Of a stretch of DNA of 64,000 nucleotides, positions 2,107 to 57,949 are shown in pieces. Within the stretch, counting starts at the first letter, position 1. Each line of letters begins with the position of its first letter. The position numbers and the translations under genes are program-made. The DNA is from a phage. Under the pieces are notes generated by a model. It saw only the letters and a program-made list of their open reading frames with translations, did no database searches and was not told where the DNA came from. The stretch is taken from the sequence record PZ540767.1. One strand, given 5' to 3'.

Positions 2107-4854
2107 ATGGGACTCTTTAGCGGAAAGAAGAAAACGTACCGAGACTTTAGCTACTCTCGCCTAATTGAAGATGATTACCTGCCTGATGTTATGGGTCAGG
2201 CAGTTACTACGTATGTGCTGGATAAAGATAATACCAAATCACTTACTGATCTGATGCTGGAATATGGGTGGTCAGCTAACAATGTTAAGTGGGATGCTGC
2301 ATATCGCTGGGCCAAAAAAGGTAAGTATTTTTATGGCCTCCCTACTACCACTACTGTTACTGCTACTGACTTCACTGGTTCAGAGTCCTTAGAAGATGTT
2401 CTGCAATCACTCACAGGTCGTACAGATCTTACCTATGTATATAGTAAGTTTGTGCCTGGGAATTTCAGGCATGGTATGTGGCAGCAACTGATCTCAACTC
2501 AAAATTATAATGCCACTACTAATATCCTGGGATCTCTGACTTCATCTTTGGGCACTACGTGCTGGCTTCATAATGCTACTAACTATTTAACCAGTGAAAC
2601 CAGGGAAGCTGTAGAAGACACCATGCTGGAGCATTGGGGCTTGTCACCTAAGAGTGGAGCTACCAATATTCGAAGCCAGGATTTGAATGCTGCTGATACT
2701 CCTGATGGGGTTAGTGCCACTGGTTCCAATTATGTCCGTGTGGAGTATGCGTGTAGCTTTGCTGGGGTAGAACGAATTAAGACCGTGGAAACCACTAAGG
2801 TAACCACTACAATTAAAACCCCAGATCCCAATGAGGAAGGTAGCTACACAGAAGAGACTTCATCTACTTCTTCAGATACCACTACTAACACGACTAACTG
2901 GAATGGGGTAACTCTACCTAATAACGTGATCAGTGCAGTGGATGTAGGTACAGGTACTTCAGAGGTTACTGAAAGTGATCCTGTCGATACGCAAACTACA
3001 ACTGATGAAACTACTGGGGTAATTACAGAAGTCGTTACAGAGGTCACCAGAGTTATCACAACAAACACTGTTTCGATCAATGTTATTGCTTACTTCAATA
3101 TGTCGTTTGGGATCTATGACTACAACCCTGATTCTGAAACCATTGACACTACCACTGTGTTGGATGACCGAGATTCTGGGGATTATGATCCTACTGCTCC
3201 TCTGGTTCCAAGTGGGGAAGATACCGATGATTCCCCAGATTACTTCATGGTGTGTTATGAATATACCTCAGGGGGTACTCTCCATATTGGTTACTTTACC
3301 TATCAATATGGGTCTGGGAATTATCCTGCATTGGATGGGATCACAGGTACTGAGGTTGCCGACTTCGGACAACACTTCCCTCGTATGTATTTCCGTCTGG
3401 ATGGTAAACGCCTCATTTCAGATGAGTACTCACAAACTGAAGGCTATAAGACCAGTAAAAAGTTAGGTAATAAGCTGGACTTAGGTTGGTTAGATGTAGG
3501 AGAAGAAATTTATAATAGCTTGAGTTCTTTGGGCAAAATCAGAGATGTAATGATGATTCTTATGGTTCCTGCCAATACTGAAAATGCTATTGAACAGGAA
3601 TATCTCTATAACTATTTTCATACCCTCTGTATGTTACGTCCCCAGTACACTGAAAAAAACTGGACAATCTACTCAACTGAGTCTTCACAATCTGGTTCAG
3701 CTACAGTACCCCCATCAGATCTGGATACTTTTGATATGCGTTTAGGGGCTTTCATGGAGTCCTCTGACACATTTATTGCAACATCAAACCAGATGGACTG
3801 CCTGGGGTATGCTCGTATCACAGGCTCAATAGGTAACATTGGTGCCGTGGCTTCAGGGAGGGGTACAGGTAAGCTTCCCTTTAGATATGAATACAGACAG
3901 GATAATCAGCTTAAATACCGTTATGGTGTGAAAGATGTAGATTATCATTACTACAGAGTTCAGGTATCCAGCACTCAGTATGATGAAGTCAGGGTGTATA
4001 ACCTAAGCCACCAGGTTCGTGTAGGCGGTAAACAGGTTAACCGGAGTGGTTCCAGTGATGAACTCATGGTGCCTTTGGATCATGCTTTCAGAAAGCTGTT
4101 TAGTACTCATGAAAGAGAAACATTATATGCAAGGGCTGCTCAGATTTTAATCTGCACTGAGTATACAGTTAAGACTAAGTGGTATCAGACTAGCATTTTC
4201 AAGGCAATTACCGTTGTAATAGCTGTAGCTGTTTCTTGGTGGACTGGGGGAGCTTCTTTATCCATGATTAGTGTGTTAACTGCTGTAGCAACAACGGCAG
4301 CAACAATGATAGCTTTCTCACTATTGAGTAAGTATGTGTTCAGTAAACTGGGAAGTTGGGCTTCTATTCTGGCTACTGTAGTTGCTGTGGTCGCTGCTGT
4401 TTATGGGGGATATCTTGCTTATACAGGAACTACAGGCCCATATAGTTTAACTGCCCAAAATCTTATGCAGGCATCCAATGTTGCATTTAAAACTGCTGAT
4501 GCTTCCCTAAAAGGACAGCAAATAGCTATGCAGCAAAAGTTTGGATCTCTTCAGAAAGAGTTAGAAGAAAAGCAGGAAGTACTACAGCAAGCTCAAGATG
4601 AGTTAAACCAGGGTTCTAATACTATTTCTGACTGGATATTCCTACAGGCTACAAATGGCTATGTTAACTTAGGTGAAACACCTGATCAGATGATAACCCG
4701 TACTTTGAATACAAATATTGGAACACTGGCTTTACAGCTACCTGACGTATACCTAAGTCAGGCATTGTCTTTACCTTCACCTGTAGAGATCATGCAGTTT
4801 ATGCAACAAAAACTGTATACTGTTCCAGATGACGAACTCAATCCACTTACATGA
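2107..4854 (+). CDS. Large virion protein, Thr-rich with C-terminal transmembrane helices (putative ejection/internal protein)
   Basis: Track ORF 2077-4854 begins with TTG; first ATG at 2107 follows RBS gaggt; Thr-rich low-complexity region; two or more hydrophobic helices near C-terminus followed by coiled coil. Confidence 0.6.
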   Translation: MGLFSGKKKTYRDFSYSRLIEDDYLPDVMGQAVTTYVLDKDNTKSLTDLMLEYGWSANNVKWDAAYRWAKKGKYFYGLPTTTTVTATDFTGSESLEDVLQSLTGRTDLTYVYSKFVPGNFRHGMWQQLISTQNYNATTNILGSLTSSLGTTCWLHNATNYLTSETREAVEDTMLEHWGLSPKSGATNIRSQDLNAADTPDGVSATGSNYVRVEYACSFAGVERIKTVETTKVTTTIKTPDPNEEGSYTEETSSTSSDTTTNTTNWNGVTLPNNVISAVDVGTGTSEVTESDPVDTQTTTDETTGVITEVVTEVTRVITTNTVSINVIAYFNMSFGIYDYNPDSETIDTTTVLDDRDSGDYDPTAPLVPSGEDTDDSPDYFMVCYEYTSGGTLHIGYFTYQYGSGNYPALDGITGTEVADFGQHFPRMYFRLDGKRLISDEYSQTEGYKTSKKLGNKLDLGWLDVGEEIYNSLSSLGKIRDVMMILMVPANTENAIEQEYLYNYFHTLCMLRPQYTEKNWTIYSTESSQSGSATVPPSDLDTFDMRLGAFMESSDTFIATSNQMDCLGYARITGSIGNIGAVASGRGTGKLPFRYEYRQDNQLKYRYGVKDVDYHYYRVQVSSTQYDEVRVYNLSHQVRVGGKQVNRSGSSDELMVPLDHAFRKLFSTHERETLYARAAQILICTEYTVKTKWYQTSIFKAITVVIAVAVSWWTGGASLSMISVLTAVATTAATMIAFSLLSKYVFSKLGSWASILATVVAVVAAVYGGYLAYTGTTGPYSLTAQNLMQASNVAFKTADASLKGQQIAMQQKFGSLQKELEEKQEVLQQAQDELNQGSNTISDWIFLQATNGYVNLGETPDQMITRTLNTNIGTLALQLPDVYLSQALSLPSPVEIMQFMQQKLYTVPDDELNPLT

Positions 4855-50384: not shown

Positions 50385-51221
50385 TTACTTAACAGGGACG
50401 AAAGGTACAGAAGCACCTGGCACCATAGTGGTAGGCATTACACCGTTCCACTTAGCAATGGCATCCAGTTGAATTACGTTCGGGTTAGCAGCGAGTGCTT
50501 CACCACGCAATTTGATAGCATCAGCTTCACCTTGGGCACGGATACGTGCAGAGTCGGATTCACCACGAGCTTTCGCACGTTCTTTCTCCGCTTCAGCTTC
50601 AGATTGTTTGATCTCTTGTTCACGCTGCAATGTAACCTGGTTTGCAGTTACTTTGGCGTTAATGGAAGCAATGACGGTTGGTGGGTATTCAGGCTTGCCC
50701 ACATAGGACAGACTGATCACCTCAATACCAACTGGGGTCATTTCAGCCTGGATCATACTGAGTGCTTGGGTCAAGAGATCAGATTTACCACCATCAATGA
50801 ACTTGTCAGTAGTCATACGTGAGGCCAGACGGTTCAGGCTGTCAGCAATCTTCTGTTGCAGATCGCTGTCGGTGATTTCATCCACACCTTTACGATAGGT
50901 CTGGAAGACTGTCGCTACTTTAGTCGGGTTGACTTTATAAGCCACACCGATGTGATAGCCGATGGTTGTACCGTCAGACATTTGGAACGTAAAGATCCCG
51001 TCGTAGGTTTTCATCTGCTTGAAGGTCGGGAACGTGTACAGGTCTTCGTTCCAGCCGATCCAGTAACGGCCTACACCTTTCACTTGCTGTTCAACACCCT
51101 TCTCGTCACCGAGACGGTTAACGATAATACCCACGTTACCTGGTTCGACACGCTCATAGCAGCCTGTCAGCGAGGTCATTGCAACGACTGCCAGAATGCA
51201 GCCCATGATAAATTTACGCAT
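50385..51221 (-). CDS. SPFH/band-7 (stomatin/prohibitin-like) lipoprotein
   Basis: Start at internal ATG 51221: signal peptide with 'LTGC' lipobox; SPFH-like core and Ala/Glu-rich coiled coil (QREQEIKQSEAEAEKERAKA...). Confidence 0.6.
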   Translation of the reverse strand: MRKFIMGCILAVVAMTSLTGCYERVEPGNVGIIVNRLGDEKGVEQQVKGVGRYWIGWNEDLYTFPTFKQMKTYDGIFTFQMSDGTTIGYHIGVAYKVNPTKVATVFQTYRKGVDEITDSDLQQKIADSLNRLASRMTTDKFIDGGKSDLLTQALSMIQAEMTPVGIEVISLSYVGKPEYPPTVIASINAKVTANQVTLQREQEIKQSEAEAEKERAKARGESDSARIRAQGEADAIKLRGEALAANPNVIQLDAIAKWNGVMPTTMVPGASVPFVPVK

Positions 51222-51417
51222 GTTTGATCTTCTTTTTGATTTGACGATAAACGAAAGTGACCACCAGAGCAGGCCACACCAGAGCACCAGCAATGCCGAT
51301 GAACACGAGGATGGTATCTTTAGCTGATACCAATGAAGGCAATATGCCTCCATACAGGACACCTGACAGGAGTAAGATCACTACTCCATACAGGTAGAGT
51401 TTCAGATATTTATTCAT
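51214..51417 (-). CDS. Small two-TM membrane protein, partner of SPFH protein
   Basis: 67 aa, two hydrophobic helices, KKKIKHA tail; stop overlaps SPFH start. Confidence 0.45.
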   Translation of the reverse strand: MNKYLKLYLYGVVILLLSGVLYGGILPSLVSAKDTILVFIGIAGALVWPALVVTFVYRQIKKKIKHA

Positions 51418-51736
51418 CTGTTTTGCGATTCCTTAAACCAGGGATTGTGTAGGCTTTGGAGATATACTCCCCAATATAGAAATACTCATGAATTTCACTT
51501 TCAATCATTCGTACTTCAGAGCCTGCATCAGTCAGTACGGTGTAACAGGGTTCTGGCTTAAAGTCGGCAATGCTCATTGTGGATCCGATTTTGGTAATGA
51601 AAGCATTACCTAACCGACGTCCATCTTTTGTGCATAGCTGACGATGTAATTCCAGAGTCCCGGACGGATCGTAACGTTCAGCCCAGTCAGGCAGGACTTC
51701 ACGTTTAAACTGTTCGTCATACTCTTCGTCTGTCAT
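51410..51736 (-). CDS. Hypothetical protein (108 aa)
   Basis: ORF with ATG; stop overlaps next start. Confidence 0.45.
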   Translation of the reverse strand: MTDEEYDEQFKREVLPDWAERYDPSGTLELHRQLCTKDGRRLGNAFITKIGSTMSIADFKPEPCYTVLTDAGSEVRMIESEIHEYFYIGEYISKAYTIPGLRNRKTDE

Positions 51737-52098
51737 GAAGCCTCCTTTAAAGCTTTGTCACGACGCTTACAGTTTTCTTTCTGGCTTACCATTTCCAGAT
51801 GTGCAGGGTTACAGCACAAGCGATTACGACACTTATGGTCTATCTGCTTCTTGGATGGGATATAGCCATAGAAGTGGGTATATACAACGAGGTGAGTAGC
51901 TACAGTCTGGCTATTGAGACTCATACGCCCATAGCCTCCACCACGTCCAGTCCCTGAATCAGGGCCAGTCCATATGAAGCAAGGGCTAGGTAAGCCTTCA
52001 AGTTTAAAGCCCAGATCTCTGATATCTACTCGTTCGAATACACGCTGGAGTATTTCTTCCCTACGATTGGGAAGTTCCTCCAGTATCTTGTCGAGCAT
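51733..52098 (-). CDS. HNH endonuclease
   Basis: 'QIDHKCRNRLCCNPAHLEMVSQKEN' HNH/zinc motif. Confidence 0.65.
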   Translation of the reverse strand: MLDKILEELPNRREEILQRVFERVDIRDLGFKLEGLPSPCFIWTGPDSGTGRGGGYGRMSLNSQTVATHLVVYTHFYGYIPSKKQIDHKCRNRLCCNPAHLEMVSQKENCKRRDKALKEAS

Positions 52099-52232: not shown

Positions 52233-52775
52233 TTAACTACTGGCTTCATCTTTTCCATAATAGCGTTTTTGCAGTTCGTTCATCCCTACCTGAAGCAAAT
52301 ACATCAGATCTTCATCTTCCAGGTGTTGGACGTAGGTTAATGGGTTAATGGAATCGACTACTTCTTTAGCCTTTTCCAGTGATTTTTTAGCAGCCAGAAT
52401 GGCAGCAGTATCCTGAGCTACTTTCAGATACTCCGTAGGAGTCAGCTTAGGCTTTGCTGGTTTAACTTCTGGGTTACCCCAGGCATTTTCACCAGAAGCC
52501 ATAAGAGCATGGATACGTTCTTCCAGCTTGCCATAGTCCATAGGAGGCACTTGAGGGTACTGCCAGGCACGAGAAGCCAGAATTGCAGGGTTATGGGACA
52601 ACTGACGTTTAGTAGGTGACAGATGCAGGGCAGCATCAAATTCACCATTCTGGTTTGCAGCACGGAGAATGCCCCGTACAGTTTCCAGTTTAACCCCAGA
52701 TACTGTAGAGATCTGGTGGATACAGTAGCCTTCACGAGCCATAGCCAGAAGTGCAGCAGATTTGATAGCTGTCAT
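52233..52775 (-). CDS. Hypothetical protein (180 aa), possible N-terminal HTH
   Basis: ORF with ATG; N-terminal 'CIHQISTVSGVKLETVRGILRAA' HTH-like. Confidence 0.45.
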   Translation of the reverse strand: MTAIKSAALLAMAREGYCIHQISTVSGVKLETVRGILRAANQNGEFDAALHLSPTKRQLSHNPAILASRAWQYPQVPPMDYGKLEERIHALMASGENAWGNPEVKPAKPKLTPTEYLKVAQDTAAILAAKKSLEKAKEVVDSINPLTYVQHLEDEDLMYLLQVGMNELQKRYYGKDEASS

Positions 52776-52962
52776 TTGGATTCCTTATTTTCTAACTTTT
52801 TCAATAAGCACTCAGCATCATTAATGTCGAGTACTGCGTTTTTTACTTTATTAGACAAGTGAGCTAATTCCCTATTGGGAGGGTTAAACTCACATGCCTT
52901 TTGAAGAAGTTCATCTTTGTAAGTAGTGAGTAGCTTCTTCATCAGAGTAATTTCTGACTTTT

Positions 52963-53625
52963 TCAAAAAGTCCCCCACACTTTAGGGTTGATCAAATACT
53001 GTTCCCAGACCTTATCGAAATAGCAATTGTCTGGGGCATTTTTGAACATAGGAGCAATGTCGCTGTCTTTTAAGCCAGCAAGACCACACCCCACACGAGT
53101 GACCATGAAGTTCAGTTCACCATGTTCCCGTGCATAAGCCAGGAAGGTATCCACATACTCATGGATCACTTGACCACGTAGGGTGCGTAAGCCAGGAGAC
53201 TTAGTGGGCAGAGCGTAGCTATTGCCATAGTGACCATGACCTTTACCCAGTACAGCACCATAGAGCTGTAGGGCTGTTTTAGCAGCACCAGCACCGTGGA
53301 TACCTGCTTCATTGGACCCGAATACGAATACCATTGGTTTGCCTTCAAGGCAGCGTTGAATAGTCACTTCGACTGTCTCCATTGGAAGAGTTTCACGGTG
53401 AGGTTTACTTCGGTACACCTCAATACCATCTTCCCAGTGCATACCCCATTTACCTTGTCGCCATAGAGTTAATGCCTGTGAAGCATTCCGTTTAGCTAAT
53501 AACAGGCGAGGTGATCCTCTGAACCCTGGTTCATGCTTGGTATAAGAATTACTCTGGCTTATGGATCGGCATTCAGGAAGGTAGGCATGGGTTTCAGGAT
53601 CACGATTGATCCACCATGTCTTCAT
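52963..53625 (-). CDS. Hypothetical protein with Gly-rich motif (220 aa)
   Basis: 'VFVFGSNEAGIHGAGAAKTALQLYGAVLGKGHG' looks like a conserved nucleotide-binding-type loop; family not recognised. Confidence 0.5.
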   Translation of the reverse strand: MKTWWINRDPETHAYLPECRSISQSNSYTKHEPGFRGSPRLLLAKRNASQALTLWRQGKWGMHWEDGIEVYRSKPHRETLPMETVEVTIQRCLEGKPMVFVFGSNEAGIHGAGAAKTALQLYGAVLGKGHGHYGNSYALPTKSPGLRTLRGQVIHEYVDTFLAYAREHGELNFMVTRVGCGLAGLKDSDIAPMFKNAPDNCYFDKVWEQYLINPKVWGTF

Positions 53626-53908
53626 TACTGGATTCCTTATTATTTAGGGAATGTAAATAACCCTATCGTGTATGACATTGCACTTTGAAGCCCTACAACA
53701 TAGGGTACTTCCCAGTGTAAGAAGGTGAACACCAGGTAACTAATGAAGATTGAAGCACCATTAATTAGTACAGAGATCATCACTAGTTTCCTTATTCAGG
53801 TTGTATTGATTGATGAACTCACGACGAAGTTCTTGCAGACGAGCTACCTCAGCCTCTGCTTTGTCGATAGCTTCGTCGAAGTCTTTCATCGTTTCATTGA
53901 TTTTGTCT

Positions 53909-54157
53909 TTATCCATTGTACATACAGCTCCAGACAAGGGCACAGATGAACGCTGAGATTCCCCAGAACCCGTGCCACATTTGTTGACGGTGAAGTTTTG
54001 CCTCATAACCACAGAGACGTAAGTGAGCTTTGACTGTCTGGGTAGCTTCGTACTCATACTCAGCTTTCTCCAGTTCAGCTTTTGAGATCCTTACCAGGTG
54101 TGTCCACCAGATAAAGTTGATGCAGCAAATGGCTAAAGCAATTAATACGTAGATCAT
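53909..54157 (-). CDS. Small membrane protein (82 aa)
   Basis: ATG; N- and C-terminal hydrophobic helices with central coiled coil. Confidence 0.4.
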   Translation of the reverse strand: MIYVLIALAICCINFIWWTHLVRISKAELEKAEYEYEATQTVKAHLRLCGYEAKLHRQQMWHGFWGISAFICALVWSCMYNG

Positions 54158-54412
54158 AGGAGCCTCTTTAGGATATAGGTTAAGACTGTCTTAAACCCCG
54201 TTAGCCTATAGGTTACTTTAGTCAAAATGGGGATTTTTGGTAAATTTAGAATATAGGTTGAAAGCGTACTAGTAGTACTAAGAAGTACTACCAGAACACT
54301 CTGAACTACTAAAAATGAGGGGAGACTAGCTCCCCTGCCAAAGGCATAGATAAGAATTAAGTGATGGTAATGAGTCGAGCGACTCACAGAAGTGACCGGA
54401 GGTCACAAAGGC

Positions 54413-55649: not shown

Positions 55650-56924
55650 TTAGCTTAATGCATAGTTGGAACCACGGATTTTATCTCCGAGGTTGTTAGA
55701 CAGTTTGGTATATACCCCATCAGTGCTTCCATACAGCTGGTTCATCAGGGATTGCAGAATGGTGCTATCAGCGAATTCTGCCAGCATCTCTTTGTACCAG
55801 TACCGTACTTCATTACAGTTGTTTGGATGGGAACCAAAGGCATCGTGAACAGTAGCCACAGGGAATGGTTTGTAGGTCAGCATGAAGTTAACTTTACGCA
55901 TTACATCACGAGCTAAGTCGATAGGTAACTGCATGTAGTTGCTCCAGTTGATATCGTTGAGAATAACCATAGAAGACTGCTTATTCTCATTCCACAGACG
56001 GATACGACGTACCATATCACCAGTAGCTTCTTCAGCCTGCATACCCATGCTATTAGCCAGCAGACGTGCTTCCAGCATCTTCTGCACCTCTGCTACCAGT
56101 TCTGGATCGTAGTTGCACAGACGCTCCAGCTCACGCAGCAGATAGGCATCACAGCAGTGAATGGTATTGGCTACGTTAGCTCGGCCTTTCTCTGTACCCC
56201 GGTTCTCTTTGTATTCCATGGTGAAAGTAGCGTGATCAAGCTCATCTACTTCAATTCTGGTTTCCAGAGTTTCCATGACTTTCATCTTAGCGATGAAGCC
56301 ATCAGGCAGCTCCAGAACGTGTTCCAGAGCATACGGACGCCAGGAACCCAGGAGTTCATCCATGAGGTTGAACGCACCAGGAGCGATGATGTGGGCTGCT
56401 TCGTAGAAGTAGTCCAGCATCTCGCCCTCACCGAATACCTTCTTAGGCACAGCCTTAGAACCGTAACCAGAGGTCATTACAGCTTGTTTGATATGGCTAC
56501 GAGGTACTTGGATACTATCCAGACCTTTACGCTTCAGAACGCCATTCATGGCGTCTGTAGTGTTGCTGTAGGCATCCATACGCTTCTCTGGGTCAATACA
56601 ACCAGTGTTGTATGCACCTCTCTCACAGCCTGTGAGGGCACTCATAATCTGAATTCCAGAGCAGCAACCATCCCAGTAGGTGATGTTGCCTACAGCTTCC
56701 CCACGCTGTACACGACGTAAAGTCATAACAGCTTTGTGGTACAGCTCAGGGGTTTCAGCATCTTGAACCTTAGATTCCAGATCCTTGATGTTGTCGTATA
56801 CCCACTGAATACGTTCTTCGAACAGTTTCTTGTCCAGACCGTAATAGTTGGCTACGTCGATGCACATGTATTCCCAACCAGACATATATTTGAAGTTTGG
56901 GCCATAAGCGGTGTTGATTACCAT
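55650..56924 (-). CDS. Phage RNA polymerase II, large (catalytic) subunit; T7-like single-subunit RNAP C-terminal half
   Basis: 'DGCCSGIQIMSALTG' (T7 RNAP motif A-like DGSCSGIQ) and 'VHDAFGSHP' (motif C-like HDSFG). Confidence 0.85.
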   Translation of the reverse strand: MVINTAYGPNFKYMSGWEYMCIDVANYYGLDKKLFEERIQWVYDNIKDLESKVQDAETPELYHKAVMTLRRVQRGEAVGNITYWDGCCSGIQIMSALTGCERGAYNTGCIDPEKRMDAYSNTTDAMNGVLKRKGLDSIQVPRSHIKQAVMTSGYGSKAVPKKVFGEGEMLDYFYEAAHIIAPGAFNLMDELLGSWRPYALEHVLELPDGFIAKMKVMETLETRIEVDELDHATFTMEYKENRGTEKGRANVANTIHCCDAYLLRELERLCNYDPELVAEVQKMLEARLLANSMGMQAEEATGDMVRRIRLWNENKQSSMVILNDINWSNYMQLPIDLARDVMRKVNFMLTYKPFPVATVHDAFGSHPNNCNEVRYWYKEMLAEFADSTILQSLMNQLYGSTDGVYTKLSNNLGDKIRGSNYALS

Positions 56925-56941
56925 TAGTTAAGTCTCTCTAT

Positions 56942-57949
56942 TTAAAGTTTAAATTCATCAGGCACACCAGTTACTTGCTCTTTATTGGCAAAGTTTAAAC
57001 TGGCTTTCTTGAAGGGAGTGCCTTGAAGGTTGATGTGATAACCCTGGGTATACAGACGTCCACGTTTGTCAGGTTTATTGCCAAAGTAGAACTTATTACC
57101 CTGGTTTACCATCAGGCTATAGAAGTAGTACGACTGACGTTTGTAACGCATCCAGTTGTCTTTCTGTTTACGTACCAGATCAGCCTTCTCCCACGGTGTG
57201 AGAGGTTTCTTACGGTGTTTCTGGAGCTTCTCTTCATCGATCTCATTGAGATCAAATGTAGGTTCTTCTTCGTAGTTACAGAGGAATTCTACGTCCAGAG
57301 AGTAAGGCACAGCATTACGGCTGTTGATTACATCCAGACAGATATCCTCATTATGGTGATTGAATGATCCCCCTAGAATAAGGCTATCAGATGAATAAGT
57401 AAGGTAAGGAGTATCCATGTTATGGGTAAGCTTCTTGGGTGGGCAAACCAGTGGTGGTAGATAACACGAACGCTCAATGAATTGAGCCAACTGGTCAGGC
57501 AACCCAATATTGCTAACGATATACAGAGATGCTTTAGGATGAGGCTTGTTAATGTCATATACATCAGTATCCGTAAGGACAGCAACGATTTCAGCCATAG
57601 TCTGAATGCTGTCACGTTTATCATCGAAACCCAGTCTGGAAGCCAGCTGGCCTACTACGTTGACCATTGGAGTAGGTTCAGGGAAATACATAATTCCCAC
57701 GAACACTTCTTTCACAATAGCTTCCAGATCAAGGGATTTGAGGTGGTTAAGGCGTACAGCTTTAGAGTCGTAATACTCACCCTCAAGCCACTGGTTTAAC
57801 AGAGATACACCCTGTTCTACCTTGTCTAACAGGTTGCAATCAGGGTCTTCAAACAGCTCTTTACGGATATAACCATCAATATGTTTCCTGTTGAACTGAC
57901 GTTCATTGATGGCCTGAAGTTCCTCAACTGGTAACCATTTATGCTGCAT
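56942..57949 (-). CDS. Phage RNA polymerase II, small subunit (N-terminal half of split T7-like RNAP)
   Basis: Immediately upstream of catalytic subunit in same orientation; 335 aa; N4 gp15/gp16-like split arrangement. Confidence 0.65.
   Translation of the reverse strand: MQHKWLPVEELQAINERQFNRKHIDGYIRKELFEDPDCNLLDKVEQGVSLLNQWLEGEYYDSKAVRLNHLKSLDLEAIVKEVFVGIMYFPEPTPMVNVVGQLASRLGFDDKRDSIQTMAEIVAVLTDTDVYDINKPHPKASLYIVSNIGLPDQLAQFIERSCYLPPLVCPPKKLTHNMDTPYLTYSSDSLILGGSFNHHNEDICLDVINSRNAVPYSLDVEFLCNYEEEPTFDLNEIDEEKLQKHRKKPLTPWEKADLVRKQKDNWMRYKRQSYYFYSLMVNQGNKFYFGNKPDKRGRLYTQGYHINLQGTPFKKASLNFANKEQVTGVPDEFKL

Follow-up and report, generated by a model that had tools for sequence, protein, structure and literature searches.

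A predicted compact macrodomain of the N4 gp14 family joined to a phage-specific module in a Klebsiella N4-like phage

The gene and its neighbourhood

The DNA analysed here (hereafter the window; sequence record PZ540767.1) is a stretch of 64,000 nucleotides from a Klebsiella N4-like phage belonging to the Schitoviridae. It contains a gene for a protein of 220 amino acids (52963..53625), around which all genes are located on the minus strand. The window is about 93% identical to phages pKP-BM327-1.2, P184 and GADU21. The 3 kb surrounding the gene share 91–94% identity with these phages, FBKp27 and others, and the full 220-aa frame is kept in 13 near-identical Klebsiella phages. At the protein level, identity to the 220-aa proteins of Klebsiella Efbeekayvirus-type phages ranges from 85 to 98%, the counterpart in FBKp27 being annotated as hypothetical protein gp60. 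The features of the locus, starting upstream of the gene, are as follows:

56942-57949, minus strand: homologue of N4 RNA polymerase II subunit gp15, upstream (tblastn of N4 proteins)
55650-56924, minus strand: homologue of N4 RNA polymerase II subunit gp16, upstream (tblastn of N4 proteins)
54318..54336, minus strand: intrinsic-terminator-like hairpin with a T run (terminator scan)
54272-54291: palindrome with an 8-bp stem, unique in the window
53909-54157, minus strand: 82-aa ORF directly before the 220-aa gene
53634..53638, minus strand: Shine-Dalgarno-like AAGGA located 8 nt before the ATG (seen directly in the sequence)
52963..53625, minus strand: whole gene for the two-module protein of 220 aa (ATG-to-stop ORF, stop codon 52963-52965)
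53335..53625, minus strand: N-terminal module, residues 1–97, a small phage-specific domain (PHROG 23096 on residues 38–89)
52966..53334, minus strand: core domain, residues 98–220, predicted compact macrodomain of the N4 gp14 / A1S_2505-N type

The gp15 and gp16 homologues are followed by small ORFs, which lie between the polymerase genes and the hairpin at 54318..54336. This hairpin ends the RNA polymerase II block lying upstream. A terminator and then a promoter are annotated at the matching place in FBKp27, and the hairpin is probably the 5' limit of the transcription unit to which the 220-aa gene belongs. On the downstream side, a 68-aa ORF overlaps the 3' end of the gene by 16 nt, and further along there are a 180-aa ORF with a weak HTH match, a gp22-like HNH endonuclease gene and genes resembling gp19 and gp20. 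N4-like phages possess an anti-signalling hotspot between the primase-polymerase and the virion RNA polymerase (bioRxiv 10.64898/2026.06.04.730250); this was considered as the site of the gene and rejected, the gene adjoining the RNA polymerase II genes instead.

The window was searched by tblastn with N4 gp1–gp24, a DUF4326 domain and a SLOG domain, and no partner enzymes were found. No DUF4326, SLOG or NADAR partner was detected in the window by tblastn or by Pfam analysis of 10 neighbouring ORFs; Pfam likewise identified no ADP-ribosyltransferase among these 10 ORFs, and tblastn with four canonical macrodomains revealed no second macrodomain in the window.

Family, conserved motifs and predicted fold

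The core of the protein belongs to the N4 gp14 / NF049995 / PHROG 2072 family. It matches the NCBIfam model NF049995, "A1S_2505 family phage non-structural protein" (A1S_2505_Nterm), over residues 99–207 with an E value of 4e-43, the score being 146.1 bits against a curated cut-off of 45 and the match covering profile positions 1–109 of 109. PHROG 2072 (unknown function) covers residues 90–219 (E 7.4e-48), and residues 99–220 share 60% identity with coliphage N4 gp14 (YP_950492) across all of its 126 aa. A Pfam-A search with the 220-aa protein gave no match, even at E ≤ 1, as did a search of PADLOC, and Pfam analysis of 36 relatives at E ≤ 10 returned stray weak matches to 5-FTHF cyclo-ligase and DUF7831 and no Macro model. 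Against PDB sequences, the single protein matched only LytM with an E value of 0.44, which is noise, and a profile of 45 homologues found nothing.

By tblastn, the core was found in 448 of 50,697 phage records. These are mostly N4-like phages of Pseudomonas, Escherichia, Vibrio, Klebsiella, Rhizobium, Erwinia and Achromobacter, with the remainder including some jumbo, crAss-like and Casjensviridae phages. In protein databases the family comprises 5355 clusters at 90% identity and, at 50% identity, 5198 representatives with E ≤ 1e-3. The typical member is a stand-alone protein of ~123–135 aa that starts exactly at the equivalent of M98. A few GenBank annotators have labelled homologues as 'macro domain Poa1p family' or 'O-acetyl-ADP-ribose deacetylase 1'. 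The searchable literature yielded no experimental study of any family member. Separately, one homologue from a Rhodobacter phage is annotated 'ADP-ribosyltransferase'; the label covers just a 122-aa macro-like protein and appears to be a misannotation of this same protein.

The family is characterised by the motifs F-G-S-N-x2-G-x-H-G-A-G-A-A, G-x-S-Y-A-[IL]-P-T-K and T-R-[IV]-G-C-G-L-A-G and by a C-terminal motif, A-P-x-N-C-x-F-D-x2-W ... W-G-T-F, and every family-invariant motif was found in the 220-aa protein. Residues F102, G103, S104, N105, G108, H110, G113, A115, G131, G134, P140, T141, G179, G181 and N200 are invariant in 45 aligned homologues. The pattern GSN..G.H was counted 263 times in 266 family proteins, of which 201 contain CGLAG. 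Of 267 occurrences of the PT dipeptide, 242 are followed by a Lys, ~9% of members being without it; in the 45 aligned sequences the equivalent of K142 is present in 44, with the preceding Thr invariant.

Both the open reading frame and the Gly-rich string to which an earlier note on this DNA had drawn attention are real, the quoted string (VFVFGSNEAGIHGAGAAKTALQLYGAVLGKGHGHYGNSYALPT) being residues 99–141 of the translation, and the conservation that the note suspected there holds in the 45 aligned homologues and the 266 family proteins, far beyond chance. Its description of the protein as unassigned stands for Pfam, but not for NCBIfam NF049995, PHROG 2072 and the N4 gp14 homologue, all of which are without an assigned function. 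The family matches, NF049995 and PHROG 2072, include no well-characterised housekeeping family.

The N-terminal module is far more restricted, having been found in only 27 phage records by tblastn, namely Klebsiella relatives, in which it is fused as here, and some Enterobacter, Alcaligenes and Erwinia phages. Erwinia phage Ea9-2 encodes the module as a separate gene of 104 aa (Ea92_06) located 2.6 kb from the macro gene (Ea92_16, 129 aa), both being upstream of RNA polymerase 1. Since Ea9-2 possesses the two modules as separate genes, the Klebsiella protein represents a fusion of two modules, and the occurrence of both arrangements suggests that the N-module and the macro core may work together. 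Model confidence for the N-module is mixed (block-mean pLDDT 47–89). A strand at residues 83–88 is aligned by MAFFT to the first macrodomain strand; residues 83–97 were rejected as a homologous first macrodomain strand, the same strand being part of the stand-alone Ea92_06. The module is a small phage domain in its own right, joined to the core by fusion, and it probably targets or regulates the enzyme.

An AlphaFold2 model built with 45 homologues has a mean pLDDT of 86.6, with values of 93–98 across residues 90–220. When this model was compared with the PDB using Foldseek, the best match was human TARG1/C6orf130 (E 6e-4 to 4e-3, probability 1.0), followed by the macro domains of DarG, TTHA0132, Poa1p and PARP14, and all of the strong structural matches were macrodomains; viral proteins were searched for the fold using the BFVD library. 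The predicted elements are ordered strand, helix, strand-strand hairpin, long helix, strand, loop, helix, strand, an order that fits a macrodomain and not a Rossmann sheet, and the model shows the three alpha/beta/alpha layers and the mixed sheet of solved macrodomains, on which it superposes. The core is therefore predicted to be a compact, sequence-divergent macrodomain; because sequence methods give no link, this assignment draws on the predicted structure and on short motifs. The Foldseek comparison, which the earlier note had itself recommended, bears out its guess of a macro-type domain as far as the model goes, and its view of the loop as nucleotide- or ligand-binding is in line with the predicted match. 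Its mention of a Rossmann-type loop or a SLOG-type domain is not borne out, as the predicted element order is not Rossmann and no SLOG profile matches.

The putative ligand-binding elements within the core are as follows:

53281..53322, minus strand: motif FGSNEAGIHGAGAA, residues 102–115, end of the first core strand and Gly-rich loop 1 (invariant columns; holds the invariant S104, N105, H110 and G113)
53200..53208, minus strand: P140-T141-K142, with the proposed catalytic Lys, candidate equivalent of DarG K80 / TARG1 K84
53074..53091, minus strand: G179-C-G-L-A-G184, Gly-rich loop 2 (invariant G179 and G181; from the alignment)

For the MAFFT alignment the sequences of TARG1 and of the DarG proteins of T. 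aquaticus and M. tuberculosis were verified against the PDB, and the AdfM sequences Asesino gp217 and T4 Tk.4 were taken from GenBank records. The following elements were aligned:

N105: DarG N22; TARG1 S35
HGAGAA (loop 1): DarG MGKGVA; TARG1 MGAGIA
L-P-T-K142: DarG F-P-T-K80; TARG1 L-I-T-K84
R-V-G-C-G-L-A-G (loop 2): DarG P-L-G-A-G-N-G-G; TARG1 R-I-G-C-G-L-D

Both of the Gly-rich ligand loops of macrodomains were thus identified, loop 1 after an Asn-bearing strand and the G-x-G loop 2, which in macrodomains is the diphosphate-binding loop. In a BLASTP comparison with TARG1, the sole significant segment (pairwise E 0.003) comprised residues 154–197 and includes loop 2, with RVGCGLAGL aligned to RIGCGLDRL of TARG1; ungapped extension of this match places K142 on K84. 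The loop 2 of Thermosipho DarG reads LGCGLGGL. The Lys and the first Gly of loop 2 lie 37 residues apart in 212 family proteins and in TARG1, and 36 residues apart in DarG. On the basis of sequence alignment and spacing, the core appears to possess the catalytic Lys of the TARG1/DarG class, and K142 is taken as the probable equivalent of DarG K80 and TARG1 K84. The catalytic pair of TARG1 consists of K84 and D125. At the position of D125 there is an Ala (Ala183) that is nearly invariant across the family, and DarG is also without the Asp, its active-site residues including N22 and K80 (PMC13309987).

Other parts of a full macrodomain are missing from the family. The canonical domain begins with an N-terminal strand followed by a Gly-Asp turn, of which the Asp contacts the amino group of adenine. 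This first strand and the Gly-Asp contact are absent from the family, short members starting at the second strand, and the 220-aa protein has Q90-R91 at the position aligned with Gly-Asp by MAFFT; the second macrodomain helix (about 15 residues) is also absent. Given the absence of the first strand and Gly-Asp turn, ADP-ribose may bind differently, or the ligand may differ; the conserved F203-D204 and W207 are candidates for taking the place of the Asp. A comparison of the family with three DarG/AdfM sequences by hhalign paired 16 columns of loop 1 at a probability of 1.3%, which is not significant; the pairing is the same as that in the MAFFT alignment.

Partners of relatives and the proposed activity

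Fusions were counted among 70 longer representatives at 50% identity, with the following results:

NADAR fusion: 4 proteins
YAcAr-type SLOG fusion: 4 proteins
DUF4326 fusion: 3 proteins
WYL_2 fusion: 2 proteins
Acb2/Tad1 hairpin fusion: 1 protein
DUF488-N3a fusion: 1 protein

One protein (L058) combines a DUF4326 domain, the gp14-type domain and SLOG, and two others (L032 and L064) combine the gp14-type domain with SLOG, all three being from bacterial/archaeal species-collection contigs. At further loci, several of them on plainly N4-like phage contigs, separate DUF4326 and SLOG genes adjoin the gp14-type domain, and in N4 itself gp12 is a DUF4326 protein encoded two genes upstream of gp14. 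In the crAss-like phage cr50_1, a 4775-aa protein carries the gp14-type domain ~100 residues before an SF1 helicase, and a second helicase-named protein was present among the fold matches. A protein of cr116_1 named 'ART-PolyVal-like domain-containing protein' also contains a match. Macro, NADAR, SLOG and DUF4326 domains have been described as a viral ADP-ribose-processing network (Iyer, Burroughs, Anantharaman, Aravind 2022, PMC9503650). Of these, NADAR strips ADP-ribose from guanine in DNA and is the phage factor AdfN (PMC11543638, PMC11825919), while the macrodomains PhiKZ gp104 and T4 Tk.4 neutralise DarTG2 as AdfM (PMC13309987; bioRxiv 10.1101/2025.11.20.689424).

We consider it fairly probable that the core is an ADP-ribose-binding macrodomain hydrolase with a Lys of the TARG1/DarG type and that it serves counter-defence. 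From the fold and the conserved residues we infer that ADP-ribose is the ligand and K142 the catalytic residue, and likewise the substrate and a role in counter-defence. In such an enzyme the HGAGAA and GCGLAG loops would clamp the diphosphate of the ADP-ribose moiety and the invariant N105, with S104 and H110, would position the distal ribose. K142 of the P-T-K motif would act like DarG K80 and TARG1 K84, cleaving the bond at C1'' of the distal ribose and so releasing ADP-ribose from its attachment partner. The protein would be made from the early or middle region, near the RNA polymerase II genes, and would erase ADP-ribose marks or ADP-ribose-derived molecules of host immunity in the manner of an orphan antitoxin. 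By analogy, its target may be ADP-ribosyl-thymidine set on single-stranded phage DNA by DarT2-type toxins, a tentative choice that is favoured because DarG is the closest fold, the Lys is conserved, relatives are fused to NADAR and helicase domains and AdfM provides a precedent.

It is also conceivable, if rather unlikely, that a domain of the same fold acts on a small soluble derivative of ADP-ribose and not on modified DNA or protein, examples being ADP-ribose-1''-phosphate, O-acetyl-ADP-ribose or a TIR-made signal such as His-ADPR or gcADPR. It would then perform one step in a multi-enzyme clean-up pathway together with DUF4326, SLOG and NADAR proteins, as the DUF4326, SLOG and Tad1-hairpin associations of relatives would suggest and as argued in PMC9503650. 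However, ADP-ribosylated DNA has since been shown to be a substrate of NADAR (PMC11825919), so that the fusions speak less strongly for small molecules, and in cr50_1 the gp14-type domain shares a protein with an SF1 DNA helicase, another helicase-named protein also matching the fold. The window itself is without a detected DUF4326, SLOG or NADAR partner, and the gene is outside the anti-signalling hotspot of N4-like phages. Furthermore, the conserved Lys is the characteristic feature of the TARG1/DarG class, the substrates of which are macromolecular conjugates.

Many macrodomains bind their ligand without further activity, and the core could in principle be a non-catalytic binder of ADP-ribose or a nucleotide, acting as a sponge for a signal or as a reader that recruits the N-module to ADP-ribosylated targets. 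Sponges are widespread in N4-like phages (bioRxiv 10.64898/2026.06.04.730250), one relative carries a fused Acb2/Tad1 hairpin, the Lys is lacking in ~9% of members and D125 of TARG1 is not conserved. Nonetheless we regard this as improbable, as N105, H110 and K142 are near-invariant across thousands of diverged sequences, which is more typical of catalysis, and as DarG functions without an equivalent of D125.

The same hydrolase might instead regulate an ADP-ribosyltransferase encoded by the phage, either removing the phage's own marks or giving antitoxin-like self-protection. An 'N4-like' ADP-ribosyltransferase family is listed as common in phages (PMC9503650), the domain is found in the crAss-like 'ART-PolyVal-like domain-containing protein', and there is the Rhodobacter phage homologue annotated 'ADP-ribosyltransferase'. 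That label, though, covers only the 122-aa macro-like protein, and no transferase was found in the 10 Pfam-scanned neighbouring ORFs; inspection by eye of the 15 largest recurrent neighbour clusters of the family also revealed no DarT-like or other ADP-ribosyltransferase gene, making this explanation very improbable. A SLOG or other Rossmann-type domain binding or cleaving a nucleotide at the Gly-rich loop is essentially excluded: the G-x-G-x-x-A loop straight after a strand has a superficial likeness to SLOG/Rossmann loops and SLOG domains do occur fused to SF1 helicases (PMC9503650), but the predicted element order fits a macrodomain, with no parallel Rossmann-like sheet in the model and no match to a SLOG profile (YAcAr, DprA, LOG).

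The macrodomain hydrolase reading may be taken further, to a picture that as a whole is possible but doubtful. The N4 gp14 family would then be a distinct minimal macrodomain lineage of ~125 residues that dispenses with both the first strand and the Asp contacting adenine, has a novel mode of ligand recognition and constitutes a major counter-defence enzyme. It would combine an Asn-x4-His loop 1 with a TARG1/DarG-type catalytic Lys and its own conserved aromatic C-terminus, and could, for example, represent a second, evolutionarily independent anti-DarT2 DNA de-ADP-ribosylase in N4-like and many other phages, the Klebsiella phage enzyme being steered by its fused accessory module.

ADP-ribosylation of DNA, RNA and proteins, along with signals derived from ADP-ribose, is central among anti-phage weapons, as in DarTG, Thoeris and CmdTAC. 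Phage erasers of ADP-ribose marks (AdfN, AdfM) were discovered only recently, and the gp14 family, with more than 5000 clusters at 50% identity, is located in the early/middle region of N4-like phages, including therapeutically interesting Klebsiella phages. If it is an active ADP-ribosyl hydrolase, thousands of "hypothetical proteins" would be annotated; the proposal, if true, would also help to predict which defence systems N4-like therapeutic phages can beat and would set a lower size bound for a working macrodomain. For the Klebsiella phage window the outcome is chiefly a solid annotation and not a new kind of system, the notable points being the size of the family, its setting in N4-like and therapeutic Klebsiella phages and the unusually reduced macrodomain architecture.

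Comparison with known systems

The closest comparison is with N4 gp14 itself, both genes being near the two RNA polymerase II subunit genes of an N4-like phage. N4 gp14 differs in being without the 97-residue N-terminal module of the Klebsiella phage protein, and the N4 gene is just upstream of the RNA polymerase II genes, whereas that of the Klebsiella phage is downstream. N4 also has the DUF4326 neighbour gp12, and none was found in the Klebsiella phage window.

The lysine-dependent macrodomains of DarG (5M3E from T. aquaticus, 5M3I from M. tuberculosis) and of human TARG1/OARD1 (4J5S) share 17–20% identity with the core, the C-terminus of which is distinct from theirs and highly conserved (P-x-N-C-x-F-D-x-x-W ... 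W-G-T-F). Unlike DarG, the 220-aa protein ends with the macro core and has neither a DarT-binding domain nor a linked darT toxin; the neighbours of its gene are small phage ORFs and an HNH endonuclease gene. The AdfM proteins (PhiKZ gp104, Asesino gp217, T4 Tk.4) are stand-alone phage macrodomains of the DarG-like class with a use, demonstrated or proposed, in counter-defence, and by analogy the same chemistry is proposed for the gp14-type core. The AdfM proteins are full-size, however, and keep the N-terminal Gly-Asp that the gp14-type core is without, and no sequence homology was detected, the hhalign probability being 1.3% and tblastn of the AdfM proteins against the window not significant.

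Fusions of Macro, DUF4326, SLOG and NADAR domains have been described in PMC9503650, and the relatives of the core show exactly such architectures and neighbourhoods, whereas the 220-aa protein is without such partners and has a distinct N-terminal module of its own. A few database annotations already reflect the macrodomain nature of the gp14 type, as very probably do the Macro-DUF4326-SLOG architectures of PMC9503650. The family is already catalogued, and the N-terminal fusion is a local variant of it.

N4-like genes around the macro gene

The RNA polymerase II genes of the N4-like phages were identified in the window from their homologs in N4, where gp15 and gp16 form the two subunits of the middle-gene RNA polymerase II:

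55650-56924, minus strand, homolog of N4 gp16 (30% identity)
56942-57949, minus strand, homolog of N4 gp15 (32% identity)

The presence of both homologs confirms that the region around 55650-57949 serves an N4-like phage as its early/middle transcription module. In related N4-like phages, a gene of approximately 97 amino acids annotated as 'toxin' directly precedes the gene for the small subunit of RNA polymerase II, as in Klebsiella phage FBKp27 (gp73, L004 274-564) and Kosakonia phage Kc283 (gp14, L007 4212-4511). The window counterpart, around 58-59 kb, returned no match in Pfam.

Two further genes with N4 homologs lie near the macro gene, which encodes the predicted gp14-type macrodomain:

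50385-51362, minus strand, 325-aa ORF, homolog of N4 gp20 (64% identity)
51733-52098, minus strand, 121-aa HNH endonuclease, 53% identical to N4 gp22

N4 gp20 is annotated as 'lipoprotein'. The 325-aa ORF is probably truly shorter, starting internally; the start of its product resembles a signal peptide and its C-terminus is long, coiled and rich in Glu, Ala and Lys, being SPFH/band-7-like. The product, which is conserved in N4-like phages, is a predicted membrane-scaffold-type protein. Genes closely similar to that of the HNH endonuclease recur adjoining gp14-type genes in unrelated metagenomic contigs (e.g., L026 3431-3826).

Fusions and tandem copies among relatives

In genome assemblies, the gp14-type macrodomain was also found within single proteins, either with both DUF4326 and YAcAr SLOG domains or with SLOG only (L058 3719-4711, L032 2356-3123, and L064 3962-4711); the sources of such fusions include an Acidithiobacillus chromosome as well as a MAG of the Rhodanobacteraceae. 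These proteins are compact putative 'ADP-ribose toolkits' and would be promising material for biochemistry. In the 4775-aa gp059 of crAss-like phage cr50_1 (L009 1-14229), the macrodomain (residues ~4001-4121) is followed directly by an SF1 (AAA_30/PIF1-like) helicase (4217-4416), with no Pfam match in the first ~4200 residues. Some relatives from outside the window (P0020, P0121, and P0123) possess two tandem gp14-type domains per polypeptide.

Operon of the macro gene and its upstream palindrome

The macro gene shares its last 16 nt (52963-52978) with the beginning of the ORF that follows it, which suggests that the two are translationally coupled in a small operon. Upstream of this operon is a palindrome with a perfect 8-bp stem, ~30 nt downstream of a terminator-like hairpin:

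52772-52978, 68-aa ORF following the macro gene, with GTG start
54272-54291, palindrome, GTAGTACT-nnnn-AGTACTAC
54318-54336, minus strand, intrinsic-terminator-like hairpin

The palindrome occurs once in the window. In FBKp27 its stem is retained and is longer, while the 4-nt loop is the complement of that of the window (AAGA vs. TCTT, coding strand). This palindrome could represent an operator or a hairpin promoter of the type used by the N4 virion RNA polymerase.
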